From IMG/VR virus record IMGVR_UViG_3300017766_001646, positions 1-28,081 of that record: a stretch of DNA of 28,081 nt; one strand, given 5' to 3'. Below the pieces are notes generated by a model. It saw nothing but the letters and a program-made list of their open reading frames with translations, was not told the DNA's origin and ran no database searches. Position 1 is the first letter of the stretch; every line of letters starts with the position of its first letter. This document shows, one piece after another, positions 16,870 to 27,550 of the stretch. Origin of the DNA: a virus. Its lineage: Duplodnaviria; Caudoviricetes. The position numbers and the translations under genes were made by a program.

Positions 16870-16903
16870 CTCTTATCTCCCTGCGGTATATACCCGCACT
16901 GAG

Positions 16904-16932
16904 AATATACACCCAGTGCGGATAGTTGTCAA
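16904..16932 (-). promoter_or_regulatory. Sigma70-type promoter with overlapping inverted repeat
   Basis: Minus strand TTGACA (16932-16927), N17, TATATT (16909-16904); inverted repeat CCGCACTG (16894-16901) / CAGTGCGG (16914-16921). Confidence 0.75.
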
Positions 16933-17228: not shown

Positions 17229-17768
17229 CTATATTGTTTTTATGGTTACCGATTCAGTAGCTGGGATTAGATCAAGCCCCGGTGCATTGTCAAGCGCAAA
17301 GTCACTGAGTTTGCTAACCAGCACGGTGTGCTTTGTCCTGATTGCTTCCGGGTTGTGTTCCATCAGCCATGCCACGGTCTCTTCCTCGTCTACAACCTTG
17401 ACACGCTCGGCAACAGTCCGGAAGGACACAGAGCCAAATGGACACGTCCATGTCTTGACCTTTAGTGTGCCGTCTGCCTTGCGTGGCAGTTGACTCATTG
17501 CATAGTCTTGCAGCTGTGCGTTGTACCGGCGCTCTAGCCATTCAAGCCGTGCAACTTGTTTACCGATAATCTTGACCATGTTGTTGGTGATGGCATCAAG
17601 CTTGTCTTTCTCAGATTGAATGCTTGCCTCAATGTCCATACGCTTCCGCATGACCAGCAGTGCGAGATCTTCAGGTGATTCCTCGCCCGTTATCCAACCG
17701 GATGCTGGACCGGCATACTCGCCGGTCTCCGTATCCCATAGCTCACCATCGATTACATCAAATCCCAT
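17229..17768 (-). CDS. Mu Gam-like / Sipho gp157-like DNA end-protection protein (host-nuclease inhibitor)
   Basis: Long coiled coil followed by KTWTCPFGSVSFRT...VVDEEETVAWL...IRTK; clustered with ERF. Confidence 0.75.
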   Translation of the reverse strand: MGFDVIDGELWDTETGEYAGPASGWITGEESPEDLALLVMRKRMDIEASIQSEKDKLDAITNNMVKIIGKQVARLEWLERRYNAQLQDYAMSQLPRKADGTLKVKTWTCPFGSVSFRTVAERVKVVDEEETVAWLMEHNPEAIRTKHTVLVSKLSDFALDNAPGLDLIPATESVTIKTI

Positions 17769-17986
17769 TATCTAATAACCTCCCAATCTTCCCTTGCTTC
17801 CTGAATCGCTCGATCGTACAGGTCATCGATGGCAGGGCACCAAGCGTGTCTATTGCCATCAGCCCTGTACATAATCAGGTTCTTCTCTCCGATGTCTGAG
17901 AACCGGACATAACAGCCCGGCTCCCATGCTTTGCGCCTGATGCTCAAGCCTTCAAGCAGTCTTGTATACACTGCCCCAAATCTCAT
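17768..17986 (-). CDS. DUF2829/Tad2-like small protein (paralogue 1)
   Basis: N-terminal MRFGAVYTRLLEGLSIRRKAW; C-terminal WCPAIDDL...EDWEVI. Confidence 0.6.
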   Translation of the reverse strand: MRFGAVYTRLLEGLSIRRKAWEPGCYVRFSDIGEKNLIMYRADGNRHAWCPAIDDLYDRAIQEAREDWEVIR

Positions 17987-19055: not shown

Positions 19056-19084
19056 AATATACATCTAGAATATATATATGTCAA
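19056..19084 (-). promoter_or_regulatory. Leftward early promoter
   Basis: Minus strand TTGACA (19084-19079), N17, TATATT (19061-19056). Confidence 0.8.
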
Positions 19085-19088
19085 GGGC

Positions 19089-19125
19089 TTGACAGAATAA
19101 TATATTCGTGTGGTATATATAGAGC
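19089..19125 (+). promoter_or_regulatory. Rightward early promoter
   Basis: TTGACA at 19089-19094, then TGTGG-TATATA (19109-19119; spacer is long at 19 nt), 6 nt to ATG 19126, no SD. Confidence 0.65.
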
Positions 19126-19385: not shown

Positions 19386-19694
19386 ATGCGACGATGCAAC
19401 GAATGTGGGAACAGCGTAGAAGATACAGACAAGATGTGTACGGCTTGCCGTTTGGCAGAATGGCGCCACTTCCAAACCTTGGAGATCAACAAAAGAAATA
19501 GGCAGAATGCACTGGATGCTAACCGGGCTGCATACCTTGGACGCAAGAAAGCAATCAAGGACAGCATCAAGGCTGGTGTTATTACTGCGCTAACGGTTCT
19601 GCTGTTCTTGGCGCTTGTATCTGCTACCCGTGACGCCATCCGGTACGAGTGGGAGACTAAGCCAGCAATGCTCAAGGCAAACGGTGTCAAGTGA
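19386..19694 (+). CDS. Zinc-ribbon + transmembrane protein
   Basis: CNEC...CTAC at the N-terminus; hydrophobic helix GVITALTVLLFLALVSA; AGGAGATAAG RBS. Confidence 0.7.
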   Translation: MRRCNECGNSVEDTDKMCTACRLAEWRHFQTLEINKRNRQNALDANRAAYLGRKKAIKDSIKAGVITALTVLLFLALVSATRDAIRYEWETKPAMLKANGVK

Positions 19695-20476
19695 AAGCCC
19701 ATCAACGTATTGTGCGTGAACAAAAAGCCATTGAGGAAACCAATGGCTTATTTGGCGCATGGTGGCTAGATGTAAACACCGACATAAAGAATGCAGTAGT
19801 AAGACCTGTAACTATTGAAACAGCCAAGCGAATCGTTGAGGAATATGAATGGCTTGGATGTATGCCTGCTGTTGTATGGCATACCTTTGGAATATTCTTT
19901 GATGATGCTTGCGGTGGCGTTGTTTGTTTTGGTCCTGAATACTCAGAAAACCTAGGCATACAGGCAAGATTGCAAGGCAGGAAGTGTGCCGACTGGAGTA
20001 AGTATGGCTTTGAGGGGCGCATGATTCTTTTGTCTCGCGGTGTTTGTCTACACTGGGCTCATCCGCATTCAGGAAGTAAGCTTATTTCAGAAGCAATAAA
20101 AATGTTGCCCGATAAGTACAGAGTCATTACGGCAACAGTAGACGATCTAGCGGGTGAGATTGGCACGATATACCAAGCTTGTAACTTCCATTATGTTGGT
20201 TCAATGCGTGATTCAAATTCAAACGTAAAAAGCAAAAAGGGTGATCGTGATGCATGGCTTATACATGGCAAACTTTACGGTACACGGGCGATACGTCAAA
20301 AGGTTGGATCAGTAAAGGTTGAAGATATAAAGCGCATCTTCCCAACAGCCGAACATGTCAAGCAAAACAGCAAGGGTAGGTATTTCTATTTCCGTGGCAA
20401 CAAACATGAACGCTTAGAATACTGCACCGCCATATCTCATTTGATAAAGCCATATCCCAAGCGGGTAGAAGTTTGA
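19691..20476 (+). CDS. Mom-like (GNAT-fold) DNA adenine modification protein
   Basis: ILLSRGVCL...SKLISEAIKML...ATVDDLAGEIGTIYQACNFHYVG matches the Mom-family D-x-x-x-G-x-x-G-x-I-Y-Q-A-x-N-F/W-x-Y-x-G pattern; C-terminal KGRYFYF and KPYPK. Confidence 0.75.
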   Translation: MKAHQRIVREQKAIEETNGLFGAWWLDVNTDIKNAVVRPVTIETAKRIVEEYEWLGCMPAVVWHTFGIFFDDACGGVVCFGPEYSENLGIQARLQGRKCADWSKYGFEGRMILLSRGVCLHWAHPHSGSKLISEAIKMLPDKYRVITATVDDLAGEIGTIYQACNFHYVGSMRDSNSNVKSKKGDRDAWLIHGKLYGTRAIRQKVGSVKVEDIKRIFPTAEHVKQNSKGRYFYFRGNKHERLEYCTAISHLIKPYPKRVEV

Positions 20477-21294
20477 TACCAAGTAAGACAACCATCAGAC
20501 AGACGCTCCGGGCTCTATCAAGGACACCGGAGCGTTTACTGTCTCACGATGAAATGGTACTCCTCCACTCTGGCTGGAAGCACGGCATCATGCAGGACGA
20601 ATGCCTAGATGCCATGGTGCGTCATAACCTTGGATTTATCAGGGATGTTTGCAAGGTCATCAAGCACAAAGAGCATTTCATCGATGCTTGCCAGTACTGC
20701 GTTGAAGGTGTCATAAGAGCGATTGAAAAGTGGGAGCCTGAACGAGGCCTACGCTTTTCGACTTACGCTCATCCGTGGATATACCAGAAGCTCAGACGCT
20801 ACCAATCAAACCAACTTAGAACCATCCGGATTGCCGAACACGCAGTGGTCAAATGGCACAAGCTCCGCAGATTCTATGTGCTGTTAGAGTTGGAACTCAA
20901 GCGCCCACCAACCGATGCCGAACTCTCAGAACGCTCTGGCATGACCATAGAGACCATTGAAATGTGCAGGACGGCTCACGGCTTAGAGCCTGTGTCAATG
21001 CACCACGGCATCCAAGGCACTGACCTTGTGCTGTACGAATCTGCCGTGTTTGGCACAACCCAAAGCGCAGAGGATGAGTACATGGAAAGTGTGGAGGAAG
21101 GAAGCGCAATGGATCACCTATCTCGGCTGGATGATGAAACCCGGCAGATGGTTGTTTTGCATCTTGGCTTAGATGGACGTGTACCGCAGACAATCCACAT
21201 GATAGCCAGCCGCTACCGTTTACCGCCCGTAGTAGTCAAACAGAGGCTTGCAGAGGCATTGCAGGAACTGAGGAAGAACCTTGAAACATCTTGA
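20473..21294 (+). CDS. Phage-encoded sigma70-family RNA polymerase sigma factor
   Basis: Region 2 (VRHNLGFI; GVIRAIEKWEPERGLRFSTYAHPWIYQ; RTIRI), region 3 (ELKRPPTDAELSE), degenerate region 4; TTG start. Confidence 0.9.
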   Translation: MIPSKTTIRQTLRALSRTPERLLSHDEMVLLHSGWKHGIMQDECLDAMVRHNLGFIRDVCKVIKHKEHFIDACQYCVEGVIRAIEKWEPERGLRFSTYAHPWIYQKLRRYQSNQLRTIRIAEHAVVKWHKLRRFYVLLELELKRPPTDAELSERSGMTIETIEMCRTAHGLEPVSMHHGIQGTDLVLYESAVFGTTQSAEDEYMESVEEGSAMDHLSRLDDETRQMVVLHLGLDGRVPQTIHMIASRYRLPPVVVKQRLAEALQELRKNLETS

Positions 21295-22616: not shown

Positions 22617-23943
22617 ATGGTTTGATGAGTTAGACGCTACTCCGAAGCGTCCAGCGCGGTCAGAACGTGGCGAGCCTAACGGTGAGTTTACGCATCACAA
22701 GCTCATGGAGCGACACCCAGAGGGTGGAGGTCCATACGGTGGCAGAGATAATGCCGTAACCGCTTTGGTTGGCTATCTCAGAGAGCGCCAGTTTCATTAC
22801 GATCTAGCCGTTGCCTTTGCATTGGATTGGAATCGTAACCACTGTGACCCTCCTCTACTTGACCATGAAGTGCAGGACAAAGTTGGACGTGCTTGGGCAG
22901 AATGGTCAATCAGTGTACGAGAGATGTACACAAAAGAGATGGCGGTAAAAGACCTGCTGGCAGAACGTGCCAAAGCACTAGAGCCAAAGCAAGCACGCAA
23001 AAAGAAAGTGCCGTGGGACTGGGACAGGTTGCAGGAAGAAGCAGCCAAGAGCCGAGACACGGAATGGATAATCCCTCACGTCATAGCACGTCAAGCCATT
23101 CACTACTTTGCTGGTCCACCTAGTAGCGGTAAGTCATGGATGGCAGCTGACCTTGTCCGAGCTTCACAGTGCGCTGGTAACTGGATGGGTATCGCTCCCT
23201 GCGTCAAGTCTAAGGTGTTATACGTCAATGAAGAGATGGGTGTAGGTGAATACAATAATCGATTCCATTTGCTATACCCGGAAGCCTGCCGAGGGCTTCA
23301 TTCGTTTGTGAATGAAAACATCCGCTTTACCGATCCAGATGACCTTGAAGACATCGTAGAGTTTGTCAAAGAGAATGGCATCGACATTGTGATTGTTGAT
23401 ACTTTCGTCCGGGTCCACAACCTTGATGAAAACAGCAACTCCGAAATGTCCCAACTCTACCAACACTTCAAGCGTGTTACGGATGCAGGAGCTGCGCTCG
23501 TGGTTCTACACCATGCCCGTAAGGGCGCTACAGGCTCACTGGGGCACGAAAGTATGCGCGGGGCTGTAGAGATAGCAGCGCAGGCAGAAACCGTGCTGTC
23601 AATCGAAAACAAGATGGGGCACTACACGGTCAAGACCGTAAAGCAAAGACGTAGCCCATTTGAAGACCAGCTAAACTTTGAGTTTAAGATTCACGCCAAC
23701 GCTCCGAATGATTTGGAGATTAGGCGCATAGACATTGCCACCGAAGAAAAGACACTGGATCAAGCCATCTTGGACTACATCGGAGAGAATCCGGGGCAGA
23801 CCAGCCAGCAGATAGCCGATGGTGTGAAGAAGCGCAAAACCGACGTAGTGAAGGCACTACAAGGGCTTGAAGATGAGTCAATGTTGAACGTCATGAATGG
23901 ACAGAGAGGAGCCAAGTTCTATAGCCCACACAGTATGTTCTAA
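22606..23943 (+). CDS. PriCT-1 + AAA_25 (RecA/RepA-like) helicase with C-terminal winged helix
   Basis: GGRDNA...WNRNHCDPPL...EV (PriCT); Walker A AGPPSSGKS; Walker B IVIVDT; VLHHARK. Start placed at TTG 22606, 7 nt after GGAG. Confidence 0.88.
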   Translation: MADEWFDELDATPKRPARSERGEPNGEFTHHKLMERHPEGGGPYGGRDNAVTALVGYLRERQFHYDLAVAFALDWNRNHCDPPLLDHEVQDKVGRAWAEWSISVREMYTKEMAVKDLLAERAKALEPKQARKKKVPWDWDRLQEEAAKSRDTEWIIPHVIARQAIHYFAGPPSSGKSWMAADLVRASQCAGNWMGIAPCVKSKVLYVNEEMGVGEYNNRFHLLYPEACRGLHSFVNENIRFTDPDDLEDIVEFVKENGIDIVIVDTFVRVHNLDENSNSEMSQLYQHFKRVTDAGAALVVLHHARKGATGSLGHESMRGAVEIAAQAETVLSIENKMGHYTVKTVKQRRSPFEDQLNFEFKIHANAPNDLEIRRIDIATEEKTLDQAILDYIGENPGQTSQQIADGVKKRKTDVVKALQGLEDESMLNVMNGQRGAKFYSPHSMF

Positions 23944-24003
23944 CCTGTTCCCTGACCTGTTCCCACGACCTGTTCCCTTAAGAATATGTAATTGGGAACA
24001 GGT
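23943..24003. repeat. Iteron-like repeats, candidate replication origin
   Basis: ACCTGTTCCC at 23943, 23955 and 23968, an AT-rich 16-nt spacer, then the inverted copy GGGAACAGGT at 23994-24003. Confidence 0.8.
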
Positions 24004-24131: not shown

Positions 24132-24500
24132 ATGGACATTGAGTTTTTGACATGGAAGCAACTGAAAGAGCGTGCTGAAATGGATCGCAAGTTGAATGGT
24201 GAAAAGTATGACCACTTACTTGAAGTGGCTATCGCTTGGTTACAATCCGGCGGTCGAATGAGCCTTCACCGGTGGGCTATGCGTCGAGACTTTGAAACGC
24301 ATTTAATCCTTGATGGTAATGACATTAAGTTGGTTGAATGTGACGGTGTAAAAATCCCATTCTGCAAGATAACCGATTTGGTTTACGATGAGTTTCTGAT
24401 GATTCCAGATACACACGAAATCGGTGAACACACGCCATATCCTGAATGGATATACGGAGACCTTGAAGTGCCGCAAATGCGCATCAAAAATAGTGTTTGA
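24132..24500 (+). CDS. Hypothetical protein
   Basis: 122-aa ORF co-oriented with its neighbours; purine-rich upstream sequence. Confidence 0.7.
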   Translation: MDIEFLTWKQLKERAEMDRKLNGEKYDHLLEVAIAWLQSGGRMSLHRWAMRRDFETHLILDGNDIKLVECDGVKIPFCKITDLVYDEFLMIPDTHEIGEHTPYPEWIYGDLEVPQMRIKNSV

Positions 24501-24526
24501 CATAATATACCGACTGGGTATATAGT
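24497..24526 (+). promoter_or_regulatory. Sigma70-type promoter for the SSB/nucleotide-metabolism cluster
   Basis: TTGACA (24497-24502), N18, TATAGT (24521-24526); palindrome ATATACC-gactg-GGTATAT in the spacer. Confidence 0.75.
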
Positions 24527-24576
24527 TTGCATGGCAATAGTGCCGTGAATAAGCCGGATGGCTTGAAGGAGTAAAG

Positions 24577-25065
24577 ATGGGATTTTTTGCACAGCATGGT
24601 TCGTACAGCGAAGGCAACGGTAAAAAGTTTGCAGTAGCTGAAGCAGGCATCTACACCTGCGCCTTGGTTGACATCGAAGCAGTACAAGGCAAGTCGTTTG
24701 ATGATCCATCGGTACTTGAACCAAACTACAAGTTTGTGTTTGAGACAACCGAGGTTGGTGACGATGACGGGCAACCCTTCCGGTTCGTGCAGTTCACCAA
24801 AACAGCCTATGGTAATGACAAGGCGAAACTGACTATCCTGCTCGATTCCATGGTTGGTAAGCACATGGACCGCAACGAGTATCAAAACCTCGACATCAAC
24901 GCTCTCAAGGGCAAACAATGGCAGGTTGTCGTTGGTACTCGCCAGAAAATGAACGGCGAGATTGGCAACATTATCGAGACCGTAAAGCCTGTAAAGGTTG
25001 CAGCTACCAAGCCATTACGCAAGGCTGTACCTACGGCAGACATCACAGATCCATTCGAGGACTAA
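24577..25065 (+). CDS. Putative single-stranded DNA-binding protein (DUF669-like OB fold)
   Basis: GIYTCALVDIE N-terminus, LKGKQWQVVV, acidic-aromatic tail DITDPFED; strong AAGGAG RBS. Confidence 0.65.
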   Translation: MGFFAQHGSYSEGNGKKFAVAEAGIYTCALVDIEAVQGKSFDDPSVLEPNYKFVFETTEVGDDDGQPFRFVQFTKTAYGNDKAKLTILLDSMVGKHMDRNEYQNLDINALKGKQWQVVVGTRQKMNGEIGNIIETVKPVKVAATKPLRKAVPTADITDPFED

Positions 25066-25298
25066 TGCGACAACATTACACGGTTGGCACGCTCGATGCC
25101 TTGGCAGTAATCGAAGACTGGGGGCTGGACTTTGTATCCGGCTCCATAGTCAAATACCTACAGCGCCAAGAGCATAAAGGGCAGGCAGAGCGAGATAGGT
25201 ACAAGGTACTTTGGTACGCAGCCTATCTGGTAACACGCTCTAGAGAGTATGCCGACCGTGTAGTAAACGATGCCAAGGAGATAAGCAATGGGTCGTAA
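25065..25298 (+). CDS. DUF3310 family protein (T7 gp1.7 / SaV-like)
   Basis: HY...DALAVIEDWGLDF..GSIVKYLQR..HKG..ERD.YKVLWY; ATG 25065 overlaps the upstream TAA. Confidence 0.82.
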   Translation: MRQHYTVGTLDALAVIEDWGLDFVSGSIVKYLQRQEHKGQAERDRYKVLWYAAYLVTRSREYADRVVNDAKEISNGS

Positions 25299-25599
25299 TA
25301 CTATGACGTTTTCGCAGAAGAAAAGAATTGTTGGTGCTTCTGCTGCGGTTTGGAAAGCAATCGTAAACCTGCAATACATCATGCGTGACAGCGGTAATAG
25401 CACAAGAGAATGCGTCCGTGTCAATAAGTTAGTGAATCTAGCCAGTGACAATGTGCGATATTGGATTGACAGACCGGTCTTTGAACTTACCGATGTGGAC
25501 AATAGAAAAACCGCAGAGCAGTTTGATGAGGCATGGAAGATATTTCAGACTGATAGTTTGAAGGACATCATAGACGAGGCTGATAATGGCACGACCTAA
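25288..25599 (+). CDS. Hypothetical protein
   Basis: 103-aa ORF, AAGGAGATAAG RBS, overlaps both neighbours. Confidence 0.7.
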   Translation: MGRNTMTFSQKKRIVGASAAVWKAIVNLQYIMRDSGNSTRECVRVNKLVNLASDNVRYWIDRPVFELTDVDNRKTAEQFDEAWKIFQTDSLKDIIDEADNGTT

Positions 25600-25996
25600 G
25601 TGCAGTATCGTGGAGTCACACCGAAAGCGTGACGTGGTACTGCAAAGATACGAGGAGCTTGTGGCAGGAGGGATGCGGTGCCACGATGCAGCACGTACCC
25701 TCGGTTATAACCACACCACGATTAACTACTGGAAAAAGCAGATTCTAGATCAGACAAGAATCGAGATACAGGCAGAAGTACAGACCATGGCAAACGGATC
25801 GTTTAGCGTAGCACTTGAAAAACTGCGCTCTGGCTACATGGTACGCAGGCATGGGGCTTCTTGGTTTCTACAGTTGGTAGATAGCAAGATATGCCTGTAT
25901 CTGCTCGATGGTGCAGGTAACCGGAGATACAGCCGGGTTGCATCTTTTGGATCCGCTGATGTCTTGGCGATGGACTGGGAGATTTTCGTAGGATGA
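25586..25996 (+). CDS. HTH + DUF2829/Tad2-like fusion protein (paralogue 2)
   Basis: N-terminal HTH (EELVAGGMRCHDAARTLGYNHTTINYWKK); C-terminal SFSVALEKLRSGYMVRR...SADVLAMDWEI. Confidence 0.62.
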   Translation: MARPKCSIVESHRKRDVVLQRYEELVAGGMRCHDAARTLGYNHTTINYWKKQILDQTRIEIQAEVQTMANGSFSVALEKLRSGYMVRRHGASWFLQLVDSKICLYLLDGAGNRRYSRVASFGSADVLAMDWEIFVG

Positions 25997-26622
25997 CAAA
26001 GCTAATCTGGATCACACCTGAAGCGGAGCAGGTTATCGGTTACTGCGCTAGGGTCTCCAATCCTGCTAACCAAGATAACCCAGACGTTAGCAGGCTCTTG
26101 TCCTACTGCATCAAGCACGGGCACTGGTCAATCTTTGAAATGGCTAGCATGTGCGTTGAAATCAAGACAACACGTGCTATCGCTCCGCAGATTCTTAGGC
26201 ATCGGTCATTCTCTTTTCAAGAGTTTAGCCAAAGGTATGCACAGGTTGCTGAGTTCCCCATTCTGGGGCAGATGAGGCTTGCTGGTACAACTAACCGCCA
26301 AAGCTCACAACTGATACCAGAATACAAAGAGTTAGATGCAGAGATGCAGGGAGTCATCTTAGACGCTGAGTTGGCTGTATCGCGTGGCTACCATGCATAC
26401 AACGAGATGATAAAAGCAGGTATCGCTGCGGAGACTGCAAGGATGGTACTACCGCTCTGCACTCCGACCACGATGTATATGTCTGGCACCATACGGTCTT
26501 GGATACATTACGTGCAGTTACGAACGCAGGACGATACGCAGTTAGAACACAGGGAGATAGCAGAGTCCATCAAGGCTTTGATGGCTGAACACCTGCCGAT
26601 AACAATGGGAGTAATAGGATGA
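25993..26622 (+). CDS. thyX: FAD-dependent thymidylate synthase
   Basis: HGHWSIFE, the ThyX motif QILRHRSFSFQEFSQRY, ARMVLP, TQLEHR. Confidence 0.97.
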   Translation: MTKLIWITPEAEQVIGYCARVSNPANQDNPDVSRLLSYCIKHGHWSIFEMASMCVEIKTTRAIAPQILRHRSFSFQEFSQRYAQVAEFPILGQMRLAGTTNRQSSQLIPEYKELDAEMQGVILDAELAVSRGYHAYNEMIKAGIAAETARMVLPLCTPTTMYMSGTIRSWIHYVQLRTQDDTQLEHREIAESIKALMAEHLPITMGVIG

Positions 26623-26858
26623 GATTCGGAGATGTAGTACAAGCCTTGATGGCTGGTGGTGGTAACGCTGTATGGCGGGAAGACTGGGGAGGCTCCGTAT
26701 TCCTGCGGTATTCCGAACTGTGGAATATCTTTGAACTGCATGGCCCTAAGGGACGGGTAACACAGCTGGAAGAGTTGAGCCTATCCCCTGGTGATTTGTT
26801 TGCTAACGATTGGGCACTGGTTGCCATTGATCCACAGAGCGGATGGGTGAAGCAATGA
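26619..26858 (+). CDS. DUF2829/Tad2-like small protein (paralogue 3)
   Basis: MRFGDVVQALMAGGGNAVWREDW...LSPGDLFANDWALV. Confidence 0.62.
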   Translation: MRFGDVVQALMAGGGNAVWREDWGGSVFLRYSELWNIFELHGPKGRVTQLEELSLSPGDLFANDWALVAIDPQSGWVKQ

Positions 26859-27004: not shown

Positions 27005-27207
27005 TTACCTTTACCCTTGGTATTCTGCTGGGCGCTGGGTGCTTGGCTGTCTATAACGAGATGTATACAAGATGGCTATACGCTGATGTGAAGAGACGCG
27101 CGAAACAGCAAGGCATCAGTGAACGTCAGATGAAAGATGCCCTCGTATGGGCAGCTACAGAAGAAATCGAGGAGAGCCTAAATGCCAGCACAACCCGGAG
27201 CAGGTAG
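27001..27207 (+). CDS. Small membrane-anchored protein
   Basis: Hydrophobic N-terminus MITFTLGILLGAGCLAVY; GAGG RBS. Confidence 0.65.
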   Translation: MITFTLGILLGAGCLAVYNEMYTRWLYADVKRRAKQQGISERQMKDALVWAATEEIEESLNASTTRSR

Positions 27208-27550
27208 ACCGACTAAGTACACGCCAGACACGGTAGAAAAGATTCTGGAGGCTCTACGGGGTGGTAACACCCGCAGGGCTTCCTGTGCTGTTGCCGATGT
27301 TTCACAAGATAGCCTAGCCCTTTGGCTTAGGACCTATCCCGAATTTGCGGAAGCAGTAGAAAAAGCAGAAGGTAAAGCGGAAGCCAAGATGGTTTCAGTC
27401 ATTCGTGATGCTTCTGAAACAACATGGCAAGCGGCTGCATGGTGGCTAGAGCGGAAGCACAAGCAGGAATGGTCAAGCAGGGTAGAACAGACAGGCGCAG
27501 ACGGTTCACCTGTCAAAGTGATTGTGGAGTACGCAGATGGTAAAGATTAG
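27182..27550 (+). CDS. terS: Terminase small subunit
   Basis: GRPTKYTP, HTH, YPEFAEAVEKA, WQAAAWWLER, C-terminal TGADGSPVKVIVEY. Confidence 0.8.
   Translation: MPAQPGAGRPTKYTPDTVEKILEALRGGNTRRASCAVADVSQDSLALWLRTYPEFAEAVEKAEGKAEAKMVSVIRDASETTWQAAAWWLERKHKQEWSSRVEQTGADGSPVKVIVEYADGKD

Follow-up and report, generated by a model that had tools for sequence, protein, structure and literature searches.

A phage gene that joins an HTH to a domain homologous to the Tad2 sponges, with which other phages sequester bacterial alarm molecules, has an architecture that is real, conserved and apparently undescribed. The fusion is a core gene of a freshwater tailed-phage group, its pocket residues place it outside the Tad2 sponges, and it is predicted to be a sequence-specific DNA-binding regulator of the ssb-to-terS operon or of a late switch, the Tad2 fold probably serving oligomerisation; we give this reading about an even chance. 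Matches to PF11195 (formerly DUF2829) are currently interpreted as anti-immunity sponges. In the large and abundant phage group described here, the Tad2 domain has been expanded without the sponge pocket and one copy has been fixed in a likely regulator; either regulation is a second role of the Tad2 fold, or the fold binds a yet-undescribed signal.

The window (the whole stretch of 28,081 nucleotides that was analysed) is a linear 28 kb virus record with a completeness of 93% (CheckV). It belongs to a tailed phage that encodes a sigma factor of its own and has an HK97 capsid; the record lacks terL and portal, whose expected place is between 28081 and 1. Among the 24 runs listed, the three that hold at least half of the window's words are freshwater metagenomes. 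Features are collected in Table 1. In the run from ssb to dut each gene overlaps the start of the next, and the name ssb is our reading of the operon's first gene, from its acidic tail and its position. A Pfam search of the probable fourth Tad2-like paralogue was without a match. Elsewhere in the window lie a Mom-family DNA modification gene (19691-20476; PF25680, E 4e-21), missing at that slot in several relatives, and the gene for the sigma-70-family factor (20473-21294), for which the relatives divide between two divergent alleles, one at about 43% identity and the other at 75-98%. Three direct 10-base repeats and one inverted copy, iteron-like, stand directly 3' of the helicase gene (23943-24003) and are a possible replication origin.

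Table 1. Features mapped in the window
Feature	Coordinates	Strand	Evidence
HTH/Tad2-like fusion gene, allele A, 136 aa	25586..25996	+	ORF, Pfam, relatives, dN/dS
N-terminal arm with conserved R3 and P4, then three-helix HTH (residues 1-55)	25586..25750	+	
Helical linker, residues 56-70, prolonging helix 3; Met68 codon at 25787	25751..25795	+	
Tad2-homologous domain, residues 71-134; A91 and A119 replace pocket Trp; insertion absent	25796..25987	+	
ssb-like / replication protein gene, first gene of the operon	24577..25065	+	NF046043 weak match
DUF3310 gene, constant neighbour of the fusion	25065..25298	+	
thyX, accessory at this position	25993..26622	+	38/74 loci
Stand-alone Tad2-like paralogue; first Trp kept, Asn and second Trp absent	26619..26858	+	
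Stand-alone Tad2-like paralogue between erf and gam-like genes	17768..17986	-	above PF11195 cut-off
Terminase small subunit (terS), in ssb operon	27182..27550	+	
Probable fourth Tad2-like paralogue, cut by contig end	27935..28081	+	own profile E 0.0003 for one sequence; hhalign only 3.6%
Sigma-70-type promoter-like site, 11 of 12, in front of the overlapping run ssb to dut	24497..24526	+	
Short inverted repeat right after the -10 box	24530..24547	+	conserved; RNA fold

As first described, the fusion ORF encodes an HTH followed by a Tad2-homologous domain. Pfam matches, all below the cut-off, are to HTH_23 (residues 18-52, E 0.0055) and PF11195 (residues 72-133, E 0.0025); homology to Tad2 is further seen in profile matches to all seven solved Tad2 sequences listed, with a sub-clade E of 0.001. 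The N-terminal part has the three-helix bundle, the Ala-x4-Gly turn and the Trp in helix 3 of the HTH_23/homeodomain-like clan, and G29, A35, G40 and W49 are its invariant residues in an alignment (A1) of 72 proteins, the query plus 71 of its 107 relatives.

Nor is the fusion an artefact or a peculiarity of one contig, either of which would have counted against the original prediction: 107 of 118 candidates are relatives, 96 of these 107 span at least 94% of the query, and the fusion is encoded in 37 of 42 viral stretches. Values of dN/dS (96 unsaturated pairs from 32 distinct loci) are 0.092 for the HTH, 0.087 for the linker and 0.094 for the C-domain, and both the HTH and the C-domain are under purifying selection. 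Among distant members the mean column identity of the C-domain is 0.87 versus 0.62 for the HTH. One allele A copy (L040:1017-1410) is broken into two frames near residue 103 by a frameshift or a sequencing error. The proposal that an internal start at Met68 could release the free domain fared poorly: Met is present at 68 in 47 of the 72 aligned proteins, and of 26 distinct DNA variants 22 have a start codon there but one alone a Shine-Dalgarno-like motif.

Distant forms were sought among 1.84 billion representatives, with 163 matches, of which 150 were listed, most of them HTH repeats. A single slot, downstream of ssb and upstream of the packaging genes, is occupied by allele A, by allele B (two HTHs and a Tad2-like domain; 76 of 83 viral stretches) or by allele C (a divergent N-terminus and a Tad2-like domain; 54 of 57 viral stretches), with one allele per locus in 160 of the 166 loci that have any match; further forms are longer (P0213, P0217) or stand-alone (P0119, P0126). 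The alleles have exchanged N-terminal modules. That of allele C is under selection (dN/dS 0.11); no recognisable HTH was found in it, comparison with allele B giving E 0.018 and 2.6%, and this counts against a tidy reading of the slot.

In 118 of 118 cases ssb is followed by the fusion within 2 kb. For a count of core genes we took the best 80 of 113 ssb-picked loci, of which 74 reach the next anchor gene and are informative; all 74, which are related to each other and represent the A/C lineage only, carry allele A (40) or allele C (34). In the same loci other genes are found less regularly: thyX in 38, the orthologue of 26619 in 47 and gene 25288 in 2.

A second family of HTH/Tad2-like fusions (L177:10559-10987; 10 of 14 stretches) belongs to another sub-clade, in which the first Trp is kept. 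The larger related phage of the L177 type carries a stand-alone member of the first sub-clade beside this second-family fusion. A tree parts the two fusion sub-clades with strong support; a single origin of both families with later losses is possible. The second family was also seen in L175, L178 and L184-L191.

Solved Tad2 structures include SPO1 gp34.65 (8SME/F/G, 8WJE), HgmTad2/AcrIIA7 (8KBI), ModTad2 (8V3E, 9EIB) and SptTad2 (8WJD). According to the available text of 10.1101/2023.05.01.538930, SPO1 Tad2 contacts gcADPR through W25, W73, N26, D79 and T78, and via waters through D67, H71 and S76. When the two are matched with the beta1 Arg and the Asp-Trp end as anchors, following printed alignments, the fusion has A91 for W25, S92 for N26, A119 for W73, G122 for S76, A124 for T78 and R117 for H71; the residues retained are D79 (as D125) and probably D67 (as D108), and no others. 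These replacements recur. The W73 position is Ala, and D79 is kept, in all 96 distinct fused domains; the W25 position is Ala in 82, Gly in 10 and Trp in 4 (a rule-based assignment in which miscalls are possible), and none of the 96 has the Trp-Asn pair. A91 and A119 are each present in 71 of the 72 aligned proteins. Invariant across 23 diverse members of the sub-clade are R88, D108, G109, D125, D130 and W131, and these six together with Y105 and A110 are kept between alleles about 40% identical. Fixed replacements beside residues kept across alleles argue against simple decay of the domain.

The dinucleotide pocket is formed by an insertion of 41 residues in HgmTad2 (32-72) and of 24 in SPO1, and mutation of HgmTad2 W21A/N22A markedly reduced binding, as given in the accessible part of 10.1101/2023.11.15.567273; the cUMP site of MoTad2 lies at the same interface (10.1101/2025.08.24.671296, available text). 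In the fusion this insertion is replaced by a two-residue turn (99-100). With both pocket Trp residues changed to Ala, the Trp-Asn phosphate loop shortened and its pair lost, and the insertion absent, neither known ligand site is therefore kept, and since the known alarm-binding residues are gone the fusion is likely a core phage gene regulator and not a sensor of those alarms.

Stand-alone PF11195 paralogues, as had been predicted, are present, at 17768-17986 and 26619-26858. Our own profile finds 403 Tad2-like domains in 164 of 168 sequences, with two to six copies in 154 of the 168. Among 190 distinct domains that are not fused, the first Trp is kept in 122 and the canonical Trp-Asn pair in one, so the earlier label of the paralogues as sponges of known signals is not supported. 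Short, highly variable Tad2-like genes are expanded at loci L004-L170 and L175-L183, up to six per locus; they form some 35 sequence groups, and the canonical pocket is absent from nearly all of them.

Promoter-like sites expected at 24497 and at 16904 were both found. The 24497 site matches at nine or more of 12 positions in 74 of 82 distinct ssb-upstream regions. Further near-consensus promoters lie at 16870-16932, where a short palindrome (about 16884-16897) stands below the 16904 promoter, and at 19056-19110, a back-to-back pair before a cro-like gene. We found no operator for the fusion HTH, and the covariation of k-mers with HTH allele is confounded by lineage. The inverted repeat at 24530 occurs once in the window, tolerates G-U pairs and folds as RNA (z -3.3; z -4.3 for the allele B leader); it is common to allele A and C phages, whose N-termini are unlike, and is thus a poor operator candidate, more likely a 5' RNA hairpin. 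The leader 5' of ssb is structured, with two short hairpins in A/C phages (24528-24579) and, in allele B phages, one long stem with varying pairs (L051:9318-9412).

Under the regulator reading, the ssb-to-terS operon would be transcribed from the host-type promoter at 24497, and the fusion would self-associate, Tad2-like, through helix alpha1 and strand beta2, presenting two or four HTHs to phage DNA; from its position, its target would be its own operon or the switch to the packaging genes. Its core status, purifying selection, invariant HTH signature and the doubling of the HTH in allele B speak for such a role. In the gene order the slot closes the replication genes and precedes terS, a place often taken by late regulators such as RinA or Q. 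Tad2 tetramers assemble along alpha1 and beta2/alpha2, as described in the accessible parts of 10.1101/2023.05.01.538930 and 10.1101/2023.11.15.567273. The fusion keeps alpha1 and beta2 but lacks helix alpha2, which in Tad2 belongs to the dimer interface; its assembly may therefore differ from that of Tad2. Against the regulator reading, the conservation of the C-domain exceeds what a plain oligomerisation module might need, the phage's own sigma factor could handle late transcription alone, and in 34 of 74 loci the slot is occupied by allele C, which is without a recognisable HTH.

A one-component sensor with a remodelled pocket is a possible though rather unlikely reading. Replacing four Trp by Ala in each pocket would make room for another host nucleotide or metabolite, whose binding changes DNA occupancy. 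Ala is fixed exactly at both Trp positions, the divergent alleles hardly vary at D125, D108, Y105 and the Asp-Gly-Ala loop, and a second HTH fusion family exists. The ligand range of Tad2 is moreover plastic, 19 of 84 tested sponges having inhibited none of seven systems (10.1101/2025.08.24.671296, available text), and viral SLOG-HTH sensors of ADP-ribose derivatives have been proposed (PMC9503650, accessible part). D125 and the Asp-Trp end, however, also occur in many divergent paralogues, and the Asp-Gly pair lies in a beta-turn common to HgmTad2, so both may be structural; a core gene, besides, fits poorly with patchily distributed host defence. The original prediction, here taken to include His-ADPR, was that the domain detects gcADPR or cyclic dinucleotides, in the manner of Tad2, and passes the signal on to transcription. 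Homology to Tad2, a possible fold match and the kept D79 equivalent agree with it, but the equivalents of W25, N26, W73, S76 and T78 are all replaced, including the pair whose mutation reduces binding, and the 24-41-residue insertion needed for dinucleotides or cUMP is cut to a turn. The Trp-Asn loop is kept in all four solved Tad2 sequences of the printed and profile alignments, and only 1% of short Tad2 proteins are predicted to be without a gcADPR site (10.1101/2023.11.15.567273, accessible part); we regard sensing through the known pockets as very unlikely.

An arrangement like that of Acr-Aca proteins, in which the HTH would autorepress the strong promoter of a Tad2-like counter-defence kit while the C-domain neutralises a host defence component, draws on the near-consensus promoter, on the variable Tad2-like genes of the operon, which number up to several, and on the HTH fusions AcrIIA1, AcrIIA13-15 and AcrIF24, which act so (PMC10901769, available text). 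It appears improbable to us: the sole conserved inverted repeat has the features of an RNA hairpin given above and becomes a long stem in allele B phages, and core status is unlike that of most counter-defence genes. We likewise doubt that the protein binds DNA to assist replication or packaging, without a part in transcription, its HTH being of terminase or invertase type and its Tad2 fold oligomerising. Its place between ssb and terS would suit such a helper, as would weak PHROGs matches (E 0.0006-0.1) that link its HTH with small terminases and a DNA invertase, but these matches reflect a generic HTH, and a terS distinct from the fusion is present in phages with allele A or C, a terS-like gene before terL in those with allele B. 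The idea that the fusion is itself the terminase small subunit, as the sole HTH-oligomer gene directly before terL, is contradicted by the separate terS. More speculatively, and with a low probability in our estimate, the Tad2 fold may repeatedly have been made the sensor half of phage transcription factors; here an indispensable sensor with an alanine-widened pocket would take a new host signal and time the replication and packaging genes by host immune or metabolic state, while the many variable stand-alone paralogues titrate it or form hetero-oligomers with it.

Compared with the Tad2 sponges, the fusion has a homologous core (a predicted helix, beta-sheet and short helix, and the Asp-Trp end) and the D79 equivalent and is likewise phage-encoded; it differs in its N-terminal HTH, in having Ala for both pocket Trp, in a Trp-Asn-Gly loop three residues shorter, in the absence of the insertion and helix alpha2, and in being a core gene where the sponges are accessory. 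Tad2 proteins are not only stand-alone, contrary to what had been supposed: fusions of Tad2 to Acb4 and to Sequestin (PF21825) are in print (10.1101/2025.07.12.664507, available text). There too a Tad2 domain is joined to a second module, but the partner is another sponge, and in the available text neither HTH nor DNA-binding partner occurs. AcrIIA1, AcrIIA13-15 and AcrIF24 resemble the fusion in combining an HTH with a counter-defence-type domain under a strong phage promoter, and AcrIIA1 is reported to sense Cas9 (PMC10901769, available text); the fusion differs in its fold and in that no inverted-repeat operator was found. The NrtR Nudix-HTH, WYL-HTH and predicted viral SLOG-HTH proteins similarly join an HTH to a domain of a nucleotide-binding family, whereas in the fusion the second domain is Tad2-like and the known pocket is lost. 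The earlier remark that no description of such a system was known agrees with our literature search, which found none in its range of preprint main texts and mostly open-access papers. The term HTH was not found in the available text of 10.1101/2025.08.24.671296, whose table of 7,492 Tad2 homologues may include HTH fusions.

One allele B contig of this phage group (L174, 26.8 kb) lies in a genome bin titled uncultured archaeon; it is probably mis-binned, because the promoters are of bacterial type.
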